Sequence record: NC_054914.1
Length of the DNA stretch: 64,000 bases
From: Escherichia phage vB_EcoM-fFiEco06
Strand: one strand, 5' to 3'
Both the position numbers and the translations under genes were made by a program. The notes under the pieces were generated by a model. That model had not been told where the DNA came from. It saw only the letters and a list, made by a program, of their open reading frames with translations, and ran no database searches. Within the stretch, counting starts at the first letter, position 1; each line of letters begins with the position of its first letter. Of the stretch, positions 1-33,306 are shown in pieces.

Positions 1-1235
1 CTGCATTACTGCCAATTTATCCAGGTGGTGGTACTCGTGCATCTACTGCCAAGGCAGTATTTGGATATGGGCCGCAGACTGACTCACAGTACGCTATTAT
101 AGTTCGTCGAAATGATGCTATTGTTCAAAGCGTTGTTCTTTCAACTAAGTGTGGTGAAAAAGATATTTACGATAGTAACATCTATATCGATGACTTTTTC
201 GCAAAAGGTGGTTCAGAATATATTTTTGCAACTGCACAAAACTGGCCAGAAGGATTCTCTGGAATTTTAACTCTTTCTGGTGGATTATCATCAAATGCTG
301 AAGTTACAGCAGGAGATTTGATGGAAGCTTGGGACTTCTTTGCTGACCGTGAATCTGTTGACGTTCAACTGTTTATTGCGGGTTCTTGTGCCGGTGAATC
401 TTTAGAAACAGCATCTACTGTCCAAAAACACGTCGTTTCAATTGGAGATGCTCGCCAAGATTGCTTAGTATTGTGCTCACCACCGCGTGAAACTGTTGTT
501 GGAATTCCTGTAACTCGTGCAGTAGATAATTTAGTTAACTGGAGAACTGCGGCAGGTTCATATACTGATAATAACTTTAATATTAGTTCAACCTACGCAG
601 CAATTGATGGTAACTACAAATATCAGTATGACAAATATAATGATGTAAATCGTTGGGTTCCATTAGCAGCTGACATTGCTGGTTTATGCGCGAGAACTGA
701 TAACGTTTCTCAGACTTGGATGTCTCCAGCTGGTTATAATCGTGGTCAGATTCTTAACGTTATTAAACTTGCTATTGAAACTCGCCAAGCTCAGCGCGAC
801 CGTTTATATCAAGAAGCTATCAACCCAGTAACTGGTACAGGTGGTGATGGTTACGTATTGTATGGTGATAAAACAGCTACTTCTGTTCCTTCTCCATTTG
901 ATCGTATTAACGTTCGTCGTCTGTTTAATATGTTGAAAACGAATATCGGACGTAGTTCAAAATATCGTTTGTTCGAATTAAACAACGCGTTTACTCGTTC
1001 ATCATTCCGCACAGAAACTGCCCAATACTTACAGGGAATTAAAGCTCTCGGTGGAATTTATGAATATCGTGTAGTTTGCGATACAACAAATAACACTCCG
1101 TCAGTAATTGATAGAAATGAGTTTGTTGCAACATTCTACATTCAACCGGCTCGTAGTATAAATTATATCCAACTTAATTTCGTCGCAACTGCTACTGGTG
1201 CAGATTTTGATGAGTTAACTGGTCTTGCAGGTTAA
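1..1235 (+). CDS. 18: tail sheath protein gp18, C-terminal ~410 codons (5' end upstream of window; frame open from nt 3)
   Basis: Frame open from window edge to TAA 1233-1235; sits directly upstream of 19/20 in conserved T4 order. Confidence 0.85.
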   Translation, partial: ALLPIYPGGGTRASTAKAVFGYGPQTDSQYAIIVRRNDAIVQSVVLSTKCGEKDIYDSNIYIDDFFAKGGSEYIFATAQNWPEGFSGILTLSGGLSSNAEVTAGDLMEAWDFFADRESVDVQLFIAGSCAGESLETASTVQKHVVSIGDARQDCLVLCSPPRETVVGIPVTRAVDNLVNWRTAAGSYTDNNFNISSTYAAIDGNYKYQYDKYNDVNRWVPLAADIAGLCARTDNVSQTWMSPAGYNRGQILNVIKLAIETRQAQRDRLYQEAINPVTGTGGDGYVLYGDKTATSVPSPFDRINVRRLFNMLKTNIGRSSKYRLFELNNAFTRSSFRTETAQYLQGIKALGGIYEYRVVCDTTNNTPSVIDRNEFVATFYIQPARSINYIQLNFVATATGADFDELTGLAG

Positions 1236-1914: not shown

Positions 1915-1965
1915 CACTATATCCTTAATTCTTTAATTCTATATGCCCTAGGTTAAACATAGGGA

Positions 1966-1973
1966 TATAAATA
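1966..1973 (+). promoter_or_regulatory. T4-type late promoter TATAAATA (proximal, 15 nt upstream of gene 19 ATG, SD GAGG)
   Basis: Exact TATAAATA followed by GAGG and ATG 1988. Confidence 0.7.
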
Positions 1974-1987
1974 CTACAGAGGCTAAT

Positions 1988-2479
1988 ATGTTTGTAGATG
2001 ATGTAACACGAGCGTTTGAATCTGGTGATTTTGCTCGACCTAACTTATTCCAAGTAGAAATTTCTTATCTTGGACAAAATTTTACATTCCAATGTAAAGC
2101 CACTGCTTTACCAGCTGGTATTGTAGAAAAAATTCCAGTCGGATTTATGAACCGTAAAATTAACGTAGCAGGCGATCGTACATTCGATGACTGGACTGTT
2201 ACAGTAATGAACGATGAAGCTCATGATGCTCGCCAGAAGTTTGTTGATTGGCAAAGCATTGCTGCTGGTCAAGGAAACGAAATTACTGGTGGAAAACCTG
2301 CAGAGTATAAAAAGAGCGCTATTGTTCGTCAATATGCTCGTGATGCTAAAACAGTAACAAAAGAAATTGAAATTAAAGGTCTGTGGCCTACTAACGTGGG
2401 TGAACTTCAATTAGATTGGGATTCAAACAATGAAATCCAAACCTTTGAAGTAACTCTTGCTCTCGATTATTGGGAATAA
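1988..2479 (+). CDS. 19: tail tube protein gp19 (163 aa)
   Basis: Length and position match T4 gp19; late promoter and RBS upstream. Confidence 0.9.
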   Translation: MFVDDVTRAFESGDFARPNLFQVEISYLGQNFTFQCKATALPAGIVEKIPVGFMNRKINVAGDRTFDDWTVTVMNDEAHDARQKFVDWQSIAAGQGNEITGGKPAEYKKSAIVRQYARDAKTVTKEIEIKGLWPTNVGELQLDWDSNNEIQTFEVTLALDYWE

Positions 2480-7946: not shown

Positions 7947-9230
7947 ATGGCTAAAATCAACGAACTTCTGCGCGAATCAACCACAACGAATAGCAACTCA
8001 ATCGGTCGCCCAAATCTCGTTGCTTTGACTCGCGCTACCACTAAATTAATATATTCTGACATTGTAGCAACGCAAAGAACTAATCAACCTGTTGCTGCTT
8101 TTTATGGTATCAAATACCTTAACCCGGATAACGAATTTACATTTAAAACTGGTGCTACTTACGCTGGCGAAGCTGGGTATGTAGACCGAGAACAAATCAC
8201 AGAATTAACAGAAGAGTCTAAATTAACTCTCAATAAAGGCGATTTATTCAAATATAATAATATCGTTTATAAAGTATTAGAAGATACACCATTTGCTGAT
8301 ATTGAAGAAAGCGATTTAGAATTAGCTCTTCAGATTGCAATCGTTCTTTTAAAGGTTCGTCTATTTTCTGATGCTGCAGTAACAAGCAAATTTGAAAACT
8401 CTGATAGCGAAATTGCGGATGCTAGATTCCAGATTAATAAATGGCAAACCGCAGTTAAATCTCGTAAACTTAAAACTGGTATCACAGTTGAATTAGCACA
8501 AGATTTAGAAGCAAATGGATTCGATGCTCCTAATTTCTTGGAAGATTTGCTTGCAACTGAAATGGCAGATGAAATCAATAAAGATATTCTGCAGTCTTTG
8601 ATTACAGTGTCAAAACGCTATAAAGTTACAGGAATTACTGATACTGGATTCATTGATTTGAGTTATGCATCTGCACCTGAAGCTGGTCGTTCATTATACC
8701 GAATGGTGTGTGAAATGGTTTCACATATCCAGAAAGAATCAACTTATACAGCAACGTTCTGTGTTGCTTCAGCTCGTGCCGCTGCGATTCTTGCTGCATC
8801 AGGTTGGTTAAAACATAAACCAGAAGATGACAAATATCTTTCACAAAATGCCTACGGGTTCTTAGCTAATGGTTTACCGCTTTATTGCGATACCAACAGT
8901 CCATTAGATTATGTAATCGTTGGCGTAGTAGAAAATATTGGTGAAAAAGAAATTGTTGGATCAATTTTCTATGCTCCGTATACAGAAGGTCTTGACTTAG
9001 ATGACCCTGAACATGTAGGTGCATTTAAAGTTGTAGTTGATCCAGAAAGTTTGCAGCCATCTATCGGTTTATTAGTTAGATATGCTTTATCTGCAAATCC
9101 TTACACTGTAGCAAAAGATGAAAAAGAAGCAAGAGTAATTGATGGTGGAGATATGGATAAAATGGCGGGTCGTTCAGATTTGTCTGTTTTATTAGGTGTT
9201 AAGCTACCAAAAATTATCATTGATGAATAA
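7947..9230 (+). CDS. 24: capsid vertex protein gp24 (427 aa)
   Basis: Length and position match T4 gp24. Confidence 0.9.
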   Translation: MAKINELLRESTTTNSNSIGRPNLVALTRATTKLIYSDIVATQRTNQPVAAFYGIKYLNPDNEFTFKTGATYAGEAGYVDREQITELTEESKLTLNKGDLFKYNNIVYKVLEDTPFADIEESDLELALQIAIVLLKVRLFSDAAVTSKFENSDSEIADARFQINKWQTAVKSRKLKTGITVELAQDLEANGFDAPNFLEDLLATEMADEINKDILQSLITVSKRYKVTGITDTGFIDLSYASAPEAGRSLYRMVCEMVSHIQKESTYTATFCVASARAAAILAASGWLKHKPEDDKYLSQNAYGFLANGLPLYCDTNSPLDYVIVGVVENIGEKEIVGSIFYAPYTEGLDLDDPEHVGAFKVVVDPESLQPSIGLLVRYALSANPYTVAKDEKEARVIDGGDMDKMAGRSDLSVLLGVKLPKIIIDE

Positions 9231-31673: not shown

Positions 31674-32042
31674 TTATGCAACTTTAATCCAATTATCTAA
31701 ATTTAATTCACCTTTGGCTTTCATTTTTTCAATCAAGAGGTCAGCGGTAATACGACCATTTTGATACCACGTAACATCTTCAGAGTAACCAGTTTCTTTA
31801 TCTTCATAAGTCTCACAGCGAATTTTACCAAGAATCAAAGTTTTTAATTCGTATGTATCTCCAGTAAAAAAGTTAGTTAACATTATTTTCCAAGAGAAAT
31901 CATCAGAAGGACCTTCAGGAGTCATACAATCTACAAATTCAAATTGTTCTTTATATAAATGCCACTGAAGTTCTTTAGTTTCGATAGCTTTATAGCCGTC
32001 GTGATCTTTACCTTTGATGTATGAGTTAAGATTGATTTTCAT
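31674..32042 (-). CDS. hypothetical early protein, 122 aa
   Basis: ORF in array. Confidence 0.5.
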   Translation of the reverse strand: MKINLNSYIKGKDHDGYKAIETKELQWHLYKEQFEFVDCMTPEGPSDDFSWKIMLTNFFTGDTYELKTLILGKIRCETYEDKETGYSEDVTWYQNGRITADLLIEKMKAKGELNLDNWIKVA

Positions 32043-32069
32043 TTTATTCTCCTTTGTTTGTGTAAGATA

Positions 32070-32099
32070 ATACTATCACAAAGGAACCATACTGTAAAC
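32070..32099 (-). promoter_or_regulatory. candidate early promoter: -35 GTTTAC (32099-32094), -10 TAGTAT, 18-nt spacer
   Basis: Hexamers read on minus strand; -10 is weak. Confidence 0.35.
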
Positions 32100-32128
32100 A
32101 ACTTTGTGCAATCTTTGGAAAATAAAAA

Positions 32129-32148
32129 AGGACTCCCGAAGGAGTCCT
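32129..32148 (-). terminator. AGGACUCC-UUCG-GGAGUCCU hairpin + U-tract downstream of the lysine-rich ORF
   Basis: 8-bp stem; minus strand reads hairpin then TTTTTATTTTCC. Confidence 0.7.
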
Positions 32149-32152
32149 CAAC

Positions 32153-32329
32153 TTATGCTTTCTGCTTACCAAAACGAGAAGCATCATCTCGAAGAACCGC
32201 ACGTGCTCGGCGCATGATCTTCTCAACAGTTTGATTGATACGAGAGTTCGACCCACGCTTGTAGCCAGCGCGTTTAGAATCACCAACTTTCTTTTCAACT
32301 GCTTTCTTTGCTTTAACTTGTTTTGCCAT
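32153..32329 (-). CDS. small lysine-rich basic protein, 58 aa (MAKQVKAKKAVEKK...; position of T4 30.9)
   Basis: Start chosen at ATG 32329; highly basic composition. Confidence 0.5.
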   Translation of the reverse strand: MAKQVKAKKAVEKKVGDSKRAGYKRGSNSRINQTVEKIMRRARAVLRDDASRFGKQKA

Positions 32330-32574
32330 TATAAATTCTCTTTTAAATGAAAATGCAGGACTTATTGACATTGCCTGCGCAAGCCCTCAAGGGGAACATA
32401 GGTTTTTGGATATTTAACGACCAGGATAACCATAAACCCGTCATCATTCACATTCAAGAGGTACACCGTAAAACTGCCGGGGTCTTAAAACTATAATGAT
32501 TCGCAAATCATTAATCAGACAGTTCGACGGCTCCTCGATTTTAGCTCACACTAAGGCAGTGAATCTCCAATAAA

Positions 32575-32823
32575 TTACTTCAATGTTACCACAAAGTGAC
32601 GAACTGCTTTTCGTGCAGCAGAAGCCAGAGGCTTAGCATATTTAAGTTCATCTTTTTCCTGAAGCTCAGCAGCTAATGCAGTTTGAGCAGGATTCAGATG
32701 TTTGAAATAACGCAGGATTTCAAGAGCTTCGGCTTCAACATCAATAGATGCGCCATAGTTTTCGTGACCATTATTCCATGCGTTTCGTTGCAGTTCAAGA
32801 GCGTGTTGTAATTGTTTAATCAT
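32575..32823 (-). CDS. rIII: lysis-inhibition accessory protein rIII (82 aa)
   Basis: Length and position match T4 rIII. Confidence 0.85.
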   Translation of the reverse strand: MIKQLQHALELQRNAWNNGHENYGASIDVEAEALEILRYFKHLNPAQTALAAELQEKDELKYAKPLASAARKAVRHFVVTLK

Positions 32824-32970
32824 TTAAAAATTCTCGTTAGAGATTAAAACTCGGTAGTCACGTTCTTCTGAATTTCATCTTCTTTCGACAGATCTCTCAG
32901 TTGTAGACTACCACATAGAATTGTTCGGTTAACTTATTATTCCGACACCCAATTCATATTATTATTTATA

Positions 32971-33306
32971 TCACTTATAAAGACACGGAATAGCTTTATA
33001 GTGACAAGTAACGAATTTTTGTTTAATTTCTTTTGGCTGCTTAAGACCCAGAGCTACAAAAGGATGCGGAACATTTCGAATTTGACCAACTGGAAGAGAA
33101 GTCAAATCACCAACTTCGCAGAAACCTTCAGGAACATCAGGACCAACAGAGTGAACTACACACAGTTCAGGAACTTCACCTTGGACACGTTTACCAATAA
33201 TAAGTCCTGATTCTGTAACTTCTTCATCACCGGCTTGTGCAGGTTCAGAAACTAAAATAACATATTCACCGACAGCACGAATTGGTAGCTGTTGTACTTC
33301 AGACAT
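32971..33306 (-). CDS. 31: co-chaperonin gp31 (GroES-like, 111 aa)
   Basis: Sequence recognisable as T4 gp31 ([21 protein letters not shown]...). Confidence 0.92.

Follow-up and report, generated by a model that had tools for sequence, protein, structure and literature searches.

A conserved non-coding gap between rIII and 30.9 in T4-type phages holds an array of structured RNA modules that may mimic bacterial antitoxin RNAs

Results

The rIII–30.9 gap in a T4-type phage

We analyzed a 64,000-nt stretch of DNA from Escherichia phage vB_EcoM-fFiEco06 (NC_054914.1), hereafter referred to as the window. It belongs to a Tequatrovirus genome; identity over the query is 100% with vB_EcoM-fHoEco02, and identity with T4 is 98.8%. 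Every gene of the block of interest is on the minus strand, in the order cd, 31.2, 31.1, 31, rIII and 30.9, and a terminator follows. A first-pass annotation, made from the sequence without database searches, had reported a non-coding gap of 245 bp between a lysine-rich ORF and rIII. Its coordinates are exact, as positions 32330-32574 correspond precisely to the rIII–30.9 intergenic region, which carries no annotation. The T4 counterpart (NC_000866, positions 130541-130784) also has zero annotated features. The product of 30.9 matches only PHROG families of unknown function and has no match in Pfam. In the searchable literature, outside which most subscription journals lie, we found no description of the T4-family gap, of the hairpin family that it shares with bacteria, or of an RNA partner of PD-T4-5. 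The features of the locus are listed in Table 1.

Table 1 Features in and around the rIII–30.9 gap (window coordinates).
Feature	Position	Strand	Description
rIII	32575-32823	minus	Gene flanking the gap
Module 0	32539..32578	minus	One putative diverged ToxI-like unit (~1.2 repeats); overlaps the rIII stop codon; abuts module A
Module A	32452..32538	minus	87-nt structured RNA; the covariance-model match scores 115 bits and is the only one in the 64-kb window
P4 of module A	32495..32512	minus	AT-rich hairpin AAUGAUU-UGCG-AAUCAUU; 8 pairs, 100% paired, 4 compensatory
B1	32400..32446	minus	Hairpin GACGGG/CCUGGUC, conserved loop UUUAUGGUUAU, A-rich tail
B2	32384..32394	minus	Small hairpin CCC-CUUGA-GGG, then conserved GCUUGCG
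GC-rich near-palindrome	32376-32387		GCCTGCGCAAGC
B3	32345..32378	minus	Hairpin GCAGG-CAAUGUCAAUAAGU-CCUGC, then U-rich run; loop includes the complement of TTGACA
TTGACA	32365-32370	plus	Hexamer within the B3 region
Start of 30.9	32329..32342	minus	Shine-Dalgarno-like AAGAG and ATG; 3′ boundary of the non-coding array; T4 30.9 is annotated from the homologous ATG
30.9	32153-32329	minus	Gene flanking the gap
Terminator after 30.9	32149-32128		Strong; nearest real terminator to the gap

The individual motifs described in the first-pass annotation are all present: a plus-strand TTGACA, an AT-rich minus-strand hairpin (AATGATT-TGCG-AATCATT) and a GC-rich palindromic segment. Its statement that neither strand has an ORF holds for conserved ORFs, and fails for short ones. 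The plus strand contains ORFs of 49 and 25 aa, the minus strand contains two of 34 aa, and a 72-aa, upstream-extended form of 30.9, annotated in some records, reaches into the gap. None of these is conserved in frame among relatives, where 1-nt indels and insertions of 43-153 nt break every frame. A 34-aa ORF, for example, meets a stop after 10 codons in SSE1.

The same annotation had offered promoter or terminator signals as one possibility, which our results do not support. A consensus scan of both strands (GC-rich stem followed by a U-run; -35 and -10 hexamers with 16-18 nt spacing) detected no promoter-like or terminator-like site inside the gap. Across positions 31900-33100 it returned two promoter-like and two terminator-like sites, all of them outside the gap and at the frequency found in shuffled sequence. 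The TTGACA hexamer is on the wrong strand for an all-minus gene block and falls in the conserved loop of the B3 hairpin. The gap is neither a promoter spacer nor a terminator spacer.

Folded as a single sequence, the gap is no more stable than expected by chance (z = -1.2 for the minus strand and -0.8 for the plus strand), so the structural signal comes only from comparison with relatives. Searches with the Rfam 15 covariance models, including the abiF motif RF03085, gave no match in the gap at E<=10, and the gaps of five relatives gave none at E<=5; sub-threshold matches (Atu_C8, Phe_leader and Thr_leader) fall on terminators. ARAGORN found no tRNA or tmRNA in the gap loci of three relatives (slur03, IME08 and W70). 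Neither complete E. coli genomes, queried with the gap, nor plasmids, queried with the gap of slur03, yielded a BLAST match. The motifs are too short and split to be caught by BLAST, and bacterial copies were found instead through a covariance model and through proteins. A reading of the UGAUGA and CUGA motifs as a k-turn or C/D box was considered from the sequence and dropped.

Conservation of the gap across Tevenvirinae

We examined phages of the genera Tequatrovirus, Mosigvirus, Dhakavirus, Gaprivervirus, Gelderlandvirus, Jiaodavirus, Kanagawavirus and Karamvirus, and also Cronobacter phage VP8, which is filed in its record under Muldoonvirus. In all Tevenvirinae genera examined, rIII and 30.9 are separated by a gap of 120-400 bp. 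Alignment of 12 gaps on the gene strand revealed long, near-invariant stretches amid 1-nt indels and insertions of 43, ~50 and 153 nt.

The structured segments are far from poorly conserved among relatives. When the same phage pairs were compared (four other genera against the window), modules A and B were each 90-99% identical (the S16 copy of module A in this comparison is truncated), versus 74-85% for rIII and 76-92% for 30.9. The non-coding gap is better conserved than the genes that flank it. Such conservation, combined with frame-breaking indels, argues that the gap is neither a protein gene nor a neutral spacer. The order of the modules is shuffled between genera, being 0-A-B1-B2-B3 in T4, B1-0-C-B2 in pKp20 and B2-B1-0 in VPA32. 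This suggests that the hairpins behave as separate units, not as domains of a single large RNA.

Module A forms a structured RNA encoded by the gene strand

Module A folds into an irregular rod of ~20 bp that resembles RNase III substrates. From its base, it consists of P1 (GAGG/CCUC), a 1x3 internal loop (A/GUA), an invariant G·U, a variable helix P2, a 2x2 loop (CG/UU) and P3, and its apex is a junction bearing the P4 hairpin. P4, the AT-rich hairpin of the first-pass annotation, is missing from the short forms found in S16, WL-3 and bacteria.

We aligned 14 distinct sequences and found that 99.1% of the cells were paired and that 12 of the 26 pairs had changed on both sides, which was equalled in 0/500 shuffles. 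Pairing dropped to 24-63% in controls with slid partners. A second alignment, which was fitted to the covariance model, comprised 23 phage and bacterial sequences with the short forms included; 99.3% of its cells were paired and both-side changes occurred at 13/23 pairs (46 cells, 0/500 shuffles). Compensatory change across relatives, which had been proposed as a check on the idea of a small structured RNA, strongly supports that idea for this 87-nt module with its AT-rich hairpin, and moderately for hairpin B1.

The alignments also identify the strand. P2 opens with a G·U pair in 23/23 sequences, and G·U intermediates occur in L120 (G·U) and L036 (U·G); read on the opposite strand, these would be A·C. 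As G·U pairs are invalid on the opposite strand, the RNA is the sense (gene) strand. Module A is a real structured RNA made from that strand. A covariance model for module A, R1, was built from phage sequences alone, and a scan of the T4 tRNA region with it gave no match.

Modules B1–B3

The stem of B1 is 94.4% paired and contains two compensatory pairs (7 cells), one with A-U/U-A/G-C exchanges and the other with C-G/G-C. Its covariation is 0.338 versus 0.129 in shuffles (0/500). Pairing of the loop sequence GGUU with the downstream AACC could possibly turn B1 into an H-type pseudoknot. The pseudoknot helix covaries in Karamvirus (AGUU/AACU, with 9-bp helices, reached in 14 and 65 of 2000 shuffles), and in the window the second helix was no better than in shuffles. 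Type III antitoxins generally look like an H-type pseudoknot accompanied by an A-stretch (PMC12283969). A preQ1-like riboswitch was dropped as a candidate for B1, as there was no Rfam match.

B2 is conserved in all Tevenvirinae genera examined, and its covariation is uninformative. Mimicry of a CRISPR I-E repeat was dropped for B2, because only GUUCCCC is in common and the stem is too short. Compensatory changes in B3 were seen by eye, in S16 only (CUGG/CCAG for CAGG/CCUG, and A-U for G-C). B3 was not called by the terminator scan, and other hairpins replace it in Jiaodavirus and Kanagawavirus. We found no partner system for B1–B3.

Module 0 resembles a ToxI unit

Over its first ~37 nt, the gap can be aligned with the ToxI repeat of 36 nt (AGGTGATTTGCTACCTTTAAGTGCAGCTAGAAATTC; sequence from PMC8610362). 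At the homologous position, relatives match ToxI closely: 35/38 positions in Mosigvirus mar005 (score 56), 29/30 in Jiaodavirus pKp20 and a score of 42 in PSD2001, each reached in 0/1000 dinucleotide shuffles. The unit in the window matches at 32/39 positions with gaps; its score of 30 is reached in 18/1000 shuffles, and elsewhere in the window tiles score up to 34. As this unit is diverged and marginal when taken alone, its assignment to ToxI rests on the alignment to relatives. Module 0 is probably a diverged ToxI unit, with a resemblance that is clear in relatives and marginal in the window.

Module 0 comprises a single unit and the tail of a preceding one, and no tandem copies were found. 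ToxI arrays in TA loci have 2.8-5.5 tandem repeats. The 3′ end of the module is AAAAU, a ToxN-type AA/AU motif, immediately before module A. No toxN gene is adjacent, the neighbors being rIII and 30.9, which is expected of a mimic and not of a TA locus. Near-perfect single ToxI-like units were also detected in unrelated phage contigs, one of which (L168) carries such a unit followed by a T4-type variant unit. A precedent is the rV5-like phage ΦTE, whose pseudo-ToxI neutralizes ToxN once expanded; the wild type needed >1.5 repeats to escape (Blower et al. 2012, PMC3475682).

Spread and loss of module A among phages

Module A has spread horizontally. Outside the T4 group, we identified it in Vequintavirinae phage W70, in Kuravirus ES17, in the Justusliebigvirus-type phages PD114 and PsgM04F, and in two metagenome contigs, always in the sense of the local genes. 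In the rV5-like phage W70, it lies 13 nt upstream of a tRNA-like sequence and near tRNA-Met and an rnaD homologue. Among Kuravirus sequences, ES17 and related contigs carry it between a small gene and the terminator that precedes the terminase gene, and in the phi92-type phages PsgM04F and L156 it is located between tRNA genes. Module A is often located among tRNA genes or immediately before them, a position from which processing would release the RNA.

The entire T4-type gap is present at 98% identity in PD114 and in an independent metagenome contig (L039), placed between tRNA-Gly and tRNA-Gln. It is followed there by the start of 30.9 fused to the last 27 codons of rIII and by a second copy of the initial 13 nt of the gap. 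From its sequence, this junction looks like the one expected from a tandem duplication or a circle of the locus.

Module A has also been lost. It is deleted in UGKSEcP1 and other phages (only 48% of the query matched), it is down to its lower stems in S16 and WL-3, and short forms that lack the apical insertion occur in some phages too. We interpret the presence/absence and truncation polymorphism, along with the duplication-like junction, as typical of arms-race cargo. A loose IMG/VR pattern, CTGATTA..TATAGTTTTA, returned mostly chance matches, and two tighter IMG/VR patterns for variants outside the T4 group returned nothing or chance coding matches only.

A related hairpin RNA lies beside PD-T4-5-like genes in bacteria

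The first-pass annotation had not foreseen any kinship with RNAs beside bacterial abortive-infection genes. In bacterial genomes, a pattern scan picked out an Arsukibacterium contig of 388 kb, on which module A occurs as two short forms in tandem, preceded by a promoter (TTGCAA-N17-TAGATT) and followed by an intrinsic terminator. The hairpins adjoin a divergent gene whose 264-aa product contains an RNxxxH motif and matches Pfam Abi_2 weakly. We rejected a hix/gix invertase site at this locus, given that its flanks fit the RNA motif and that it is equipped with a promoter and terminator of its own. A put-like antiterminator is conceivable but was dropped, as it would leave the free-standing sRNA genes unexplained.

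The association between this hairpin and the protein is tight. Contigs encoding homologues of the 264-aa protein (42-64% identity) were searched with the phage-derived model, and the hairpin was just upstream on the opposite strand in 5/5; the contig end truncates two of these hairpins, and the other three are complete, at 33-38 bits. Two E. coli ColE1-type plasmids of 3 kb, found via tblastn, also bear the hairpin beside a PD-T4-5-like gene. Such a gene occupies positions 1850-2602 of the 3.1-kb plasmid pSBF22d (NZ_CP067239). The hairpin is divergently upstream of a PD-T4-5-like gene in 8/8 loci, from Arsukibacterium, Aeromonas, Lonepinella, three metagenome contigs and the two E. coli plasmids. 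The adjacent proteins match the PADLOC model of PD-T4-5 with E = 3e-30 to 9e-27, and Pfam Abi_2 weakly. Model R1 scored the complete bacterial copies at 33-43 bits (E 1e-7 to 1e-11), versus 115 bits for the window copy.

The hairpin family is characterized by GAGG/CCUC, the A/GUA internal loop, the invariant G·U, a variable 5-bp P2, CGAA...UUUU and the 3′ flank UWGAAUGU, and module A of the window has all of these. Its lower stem is nearly identical to the bacterial sRNA, and its 45-nt apical insertion is lacking in the bacterial copies. Each complete bacterial locus has a sigma70-type promoter-like sequence and an intrinsic terminator on the strand of the hairpin. In the phage gap, our scan detected neither, no PD-T4-5-like gene is adjacent, and module A is embedded between two cistrons. 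Five bacterial copies were folded, with energies of -12 to -14 kcal/mol for sense and -6 to -11 kcal/mol for antisense; sense was the more stable in 5/5. P2 covaries between the bacterial copies, and the G·U pairs are valid on the sense strand only.

From one bacterial locus to the next, the surrounding genes are unrelated (ThiF+JAB and ThsB-TIR genes, IS66, resolvase, ParA, DUF927 and housekeeping genes), which indicates that the RNA moves together with the protein. The bacterial hairpin loci had no Rfam match at E<=10, the abiF motif RF03085 included. The hairpin thus represents an RNA motif distinct from abiF, and its genomic role is analogous.

PD-T4-5 was described as a plasmid-borne, TA-like abortive-infection gene, selected with T4 and distantly related to AbiF/D, and an RNA partner was not mentioned (Vassallo et al. 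2022, PMC9519451). The C. difficile AbiF protein, an Abi_2 member, has as its RNA antitoxin the upstream ncRNA RCd22, which contains two hairpin motifs (PMC12373285). By analogy, we infer that the bacterial hairpin sRNA is the antitoxin of the PD-T4-5-like protein. A new RNA family with covariation support, common to phages and bacterial defense loci, is established, and this holds even if the decoy role considered below is wrong.

Discussion

We interpret the gap as a source of phage-borne antitoxin-RNA mimics, as in ΦTE pseudo-ToxI, and we lend this account of its function roughly even credence. The RNA of the gap would be made within the rIII–30.9 transcript, which would end at the terminator after 30.9, as an array of small, independently folding modules on the gene strand. 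At least two modules, 0 and A, would be phage copies of RNAs that partner abortive-infection toxins in bacteria. When infection stops host transcription, the labile host antitoxin RNA would decay. The look-alike RNA of the phage would then bind the toxin and keep it inactive, the cell would not commit suicide and the phage cycle would be completed. In this way the phage copies would bind toxins to the benefit of the phage.

Several observations count against mimicry. The array has no promoter or terminator of its own in our scan, the ToxI unit is single and diverged, the bacterial sRNA is oriented divergently, and module A has an apical insertion. Guegler and Laub (2021) reportedly found that E. 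coli ToxIN restricts T4. T4 carries modules 0 and A, yet PD-T4-5 protects against T4 (PMC9519451). As T4 is restricted despite both modules, its copies are at best ineffective against those particular variants. A broader version of mimicry, which we regard as possible but rather doubtful, is that each hairpin or pseudoknot (0, A, B1, B2 and B3, together with modules C and D of relatives) mimics the antitoxin RNA of a separate Abi system. The gap would then be an "RNA antidote island", and PD-T4-5 would be a protein-RNA TA system with an overlooked RNA half.

The modules might instead act in cis, as processing, stability or translation-control signals of the rIII–30.9 transcript. They could provide an entry site for RNase III, RNase E or RegB, a 3′ stabilizer of the rIII mRNA or a translational operator for 30.9, and the likeness of module A to the bacterial sRNA would reflect a shared host factor that binds the hairpin. 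Such a role fits the position of the modules between two co-oriented cistrons without a promoter or terminator of their own, the GGAG (RegB motif) after the rIII stop codon, the rod shape of module A with its resemblance to RNase III substrates, the placement of B3 ~25 nt upstream of the 30.9 start codon, and the persistence of the gap beside 30.9 throughout Tevenvirinae. However, in three other phage groups module A is not accompanied by rIII or 30.9, and it is also found inside tRNA clusters; its bacterial counterpart is a stand-alone sRNA gene, and the module order differs between genera. Many natural phages keep both genes with module A missing or truncated, and a plain nuclease site needs no conserved unpaired nucleotides. 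We consider a cis-acting element unlikely. Still less probable is that module A, with its apical insertion, is a trigger or bait instead of a decoy, displacing the host antitoxin sRNA from a PD-T4-5-like toxin without inhibiting the toxin or being sensed by the defense, and is kept for some other role. This would demand a second function strong enough to account for 90-99% cross-genus identity and horizontal spread, and it sits poorly with the short forms without the apical insertion that phages also have. It would be consistent with the abortion of T4, a module A carrier, by PD-T4-5, with a lower stem near-identical to the bacterial sRNA under a different apex, and with natural T4-type phages in which module A is deleted or truncated, as these could be escapers.

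Two further explanations have little credibility. A DNA-level signal (a promoter of 30.9, a terminator of rIII or a palindrome bound by a protein) was suggested by the plus-strand TTGACA, the B3 hairpin with its U-rich run and the GC-rich near-palindrome. It is very improbable given that the consensus scan was blank in the gap with whole-region counts at shuffle level, that TTGACA is on the non-coding strand, and that the bacterial copies fold more stably in sense than in antisense in all five cases. Strand-specific G·U pairs, asymmetric internal loops and a 45-nt insert in the middle of the "palindrome" indicate an RNA and not a dimer-binding site. A hidden small protein, whether from the 34-aa minus-strand ORF, the 49-aa plus-strand ORF or the long 72-aa form of 30.9, is the explanation to which we give almost no weight: ORFs of 25-49 aa do exist and some records annotate them, but no frame survives the 1-nt indels and the 43-, 50- and 153-nt insertions that separate close relatives, and conservation tracks base pairing without codon periodicity.

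No virulent phage has been studied better than T4, in which this 245-bp stretch is nevertheless unannotated. If antitoxin-RNA mimicry is correct, the gap would represent a second, widespread class of such mimicry, directed against a HEPN toxin of the AbiF/D type and not against ToxN, and PD-T4-5, reported as a single gene, would have a conserved small-RNA partner. It would also explain why a non-coding element is exchanged by unrelated phages and parked in their tRNA clusters. If the antidote-island version also proved true, the orphan modules could be used as probes for further RNA-controlled defense systems.

Among known systems, the T4 species rnaC and rnaD (species 1 and 2) are likewise small non-coding phage RNAs of unknown function beside tRNA genes, and W70 has module A, tRNAs and an rnaD homologue in one cluster. 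They differ from the modules described here in that there is no sequence or covariance-model likeness to modules 0, A or B; BLAST of the T4 rnaC/rnaD region against all gaps matched only the rnaD homologue of W70, and the T4 gap lies 60 kb from the T4 tRNA cluster. In AbiF-RCd22 and the type III TA systems (ToxIN, CptIN, TenpIN and AbiQ), an RNase toxin is neutralized by a structured RNA. The bacterial relatives of module A are similar to these in being one or two tandem hairpins with a terminator, strictly linked to a HEPN gene of the Abi_2/AbiF/D family, and they sit on plasmids and defense islands. However, the bacterial hairpin sRNA is divergent from the toxin gene and not upstream of it in one operon, RF03085 does not match, and the antitoxin role is assigned by analogy. 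The proteins linked to the hairpin match the PADLOC model of PD-T4-5, and those from E. coli are plasmid-borne as reported (PMC9519451). PD-T4-5 itself was published as a single gene without an RNA, whereas the proteins found here are relatives in the family and not necessarily the published allele.

The closest parallel is ΦTE pseudo-ToxI. In both cases, a non-coding intergenic phage sequence resembles the 36-nt ToxI unit, with ~1-1.5 units in the wild type, and the proposed action is the same, namely that an Abi toxin is bound and silenced during infection. ΦTE is also rV5-like, as is the module A carrier W70. In contrast to ΦTE, the T4-family unit is one module of a composite array, is more diverged in the window and shows no multi-repeat expansion. 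Mimicry of an antitoxin by a phage RNA is already known from ΦTE. What is new here is the T4-family locus, the hairpin family that phages have in common with PD-T4-5-like loci, the RNA partner implied for PD-T4-5 and the composite, shuffled array.

Conserved inserts in the rIII-30.9 gap

Two further non-coding modules interrupt the gap in relatives. The first, hairpin D, is a conserved 43-50-nt insert separating RNA modules A and B1, with the loop AAAAGGUUA. It is present in T2-type, Mosigvirus, Dhakavirus and Gaprivervirus phages, and shares a GGUUA loop motif with hairpin B1. In the phi92-type copy, the stem is altered by compensatory changes. Module C, the third conserved non-coding module (~150 nt), is inserted in the gap of some Tequatrovirus, Jiaodavirus and Kanagawavirus phages and had no Rfam match. 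It contains the hairpin CUGA-GAAA-UCAG, which reads UCGA-GAAA-UCGA in slur03. The start of module C in pKp20 looks like a partial second ToxI-like repeat.

In the unannotated gap of phage W70, module A is accompanied by tRNA-Met, by a tRNA-like sequence (GCGCGGG...CCCGCGC) that received no ARAGORN call, and by a homologue of T4 rnaD (species 2 RNA; 89-91% over 44 and 32 nt).

Coordinates of features in the window and in related sequences
Feature	Sequence	Position	Strand	Remark
RegB endoribonuclease motif GGAG	window	32571-32568	-	4 nt past rIII stop codon
30.9, short form (58 aa)	window	ATG at 32329	-	T4 annotation
30.9, long form (72 aa)	window	from 32371	-	annotated in Kha5h, HP3, AR1, others
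Atu_C8 Rfam match	window	32114-32197	-	sub-threshold, 31 bits vs gathering score 50
Module D	L005 (T2), L007 (IME08), L010, L012, L014	gap		between A and B1
Module D	L143 (PsgM04F, phi92-type)	~2135-2185		after module A
Module C	L006 (slur03)	~720-875	-	
Module C	L139 (pKp20)	~670-830		
Module C	L140 (PEi20)	~615-770		
Unannotated gap, 615 bp	L011 (W70)	1134-1748	reverse	
Inserted T4-type gap with fusion ORF	L017 (PD114)	1965-2312		
Inserted T4-type gap with fusion ORF	L039	~8370-8720		
Single ToxI-like unit	L168	1840-1935		
Single ToxI-like unit	L172	2400-2480		
Single ToxI-like unit	L169, L170, L173-L175			

Genes flanking the gap

The GGAG just past rIII falls within the ToxI-like unit (module 0), and the RIII protein has been reported to modulate RegB activation via S1 (PMC9409239). 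At the other end, records for 30.9 (32153-32371, minus strand) differ in where the gene starts, and the longer form would be translated through hairpin B3. The product is small and lysine/arginine-rich and belongs to PHROG 1427 (unknown function); no Pfam family was found for it. The match to Atu_C8, a Rhizobiales sRNA, spans the 3' end of 30.9 and the terminator GAGGACUCCUUCGGGAGUCCUU and is probably mere terminator similarity.

Related elements in other phages and in bacteria

In the phi92-type phages PD114 and L039, the inserted T4-type gap terminates in a 43-aa fusion ORF, in which the 30.9 start codon and its upstream extension are joined to the final 27 codons of rIII. A repeat of TTTATTGGAGATT follows, continuing into tRNA-Gln. 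This arrangement looks like the junction that the T4 locus would show in a tandem duplication or as a circular intermediate.

Arsukibacterium-type contigs (L162-L165, L150) carry the PD-T4-5-like gene and its hairpin sRNA inside a defence island, together with ThiF (E1-like) and JAB genes, two ThsB-type TIR genes, a serine recombinase and an HTH gene paired with an M78 peptidase.

Single, near-perfect ToxI-like units were also found in unrelated IMG/VR phage contigs. They are placed directly 3' of promoter-like sequence or directly 5' of a terminator, suggesting that such pseudo-ToxI units may be common phage cargo.
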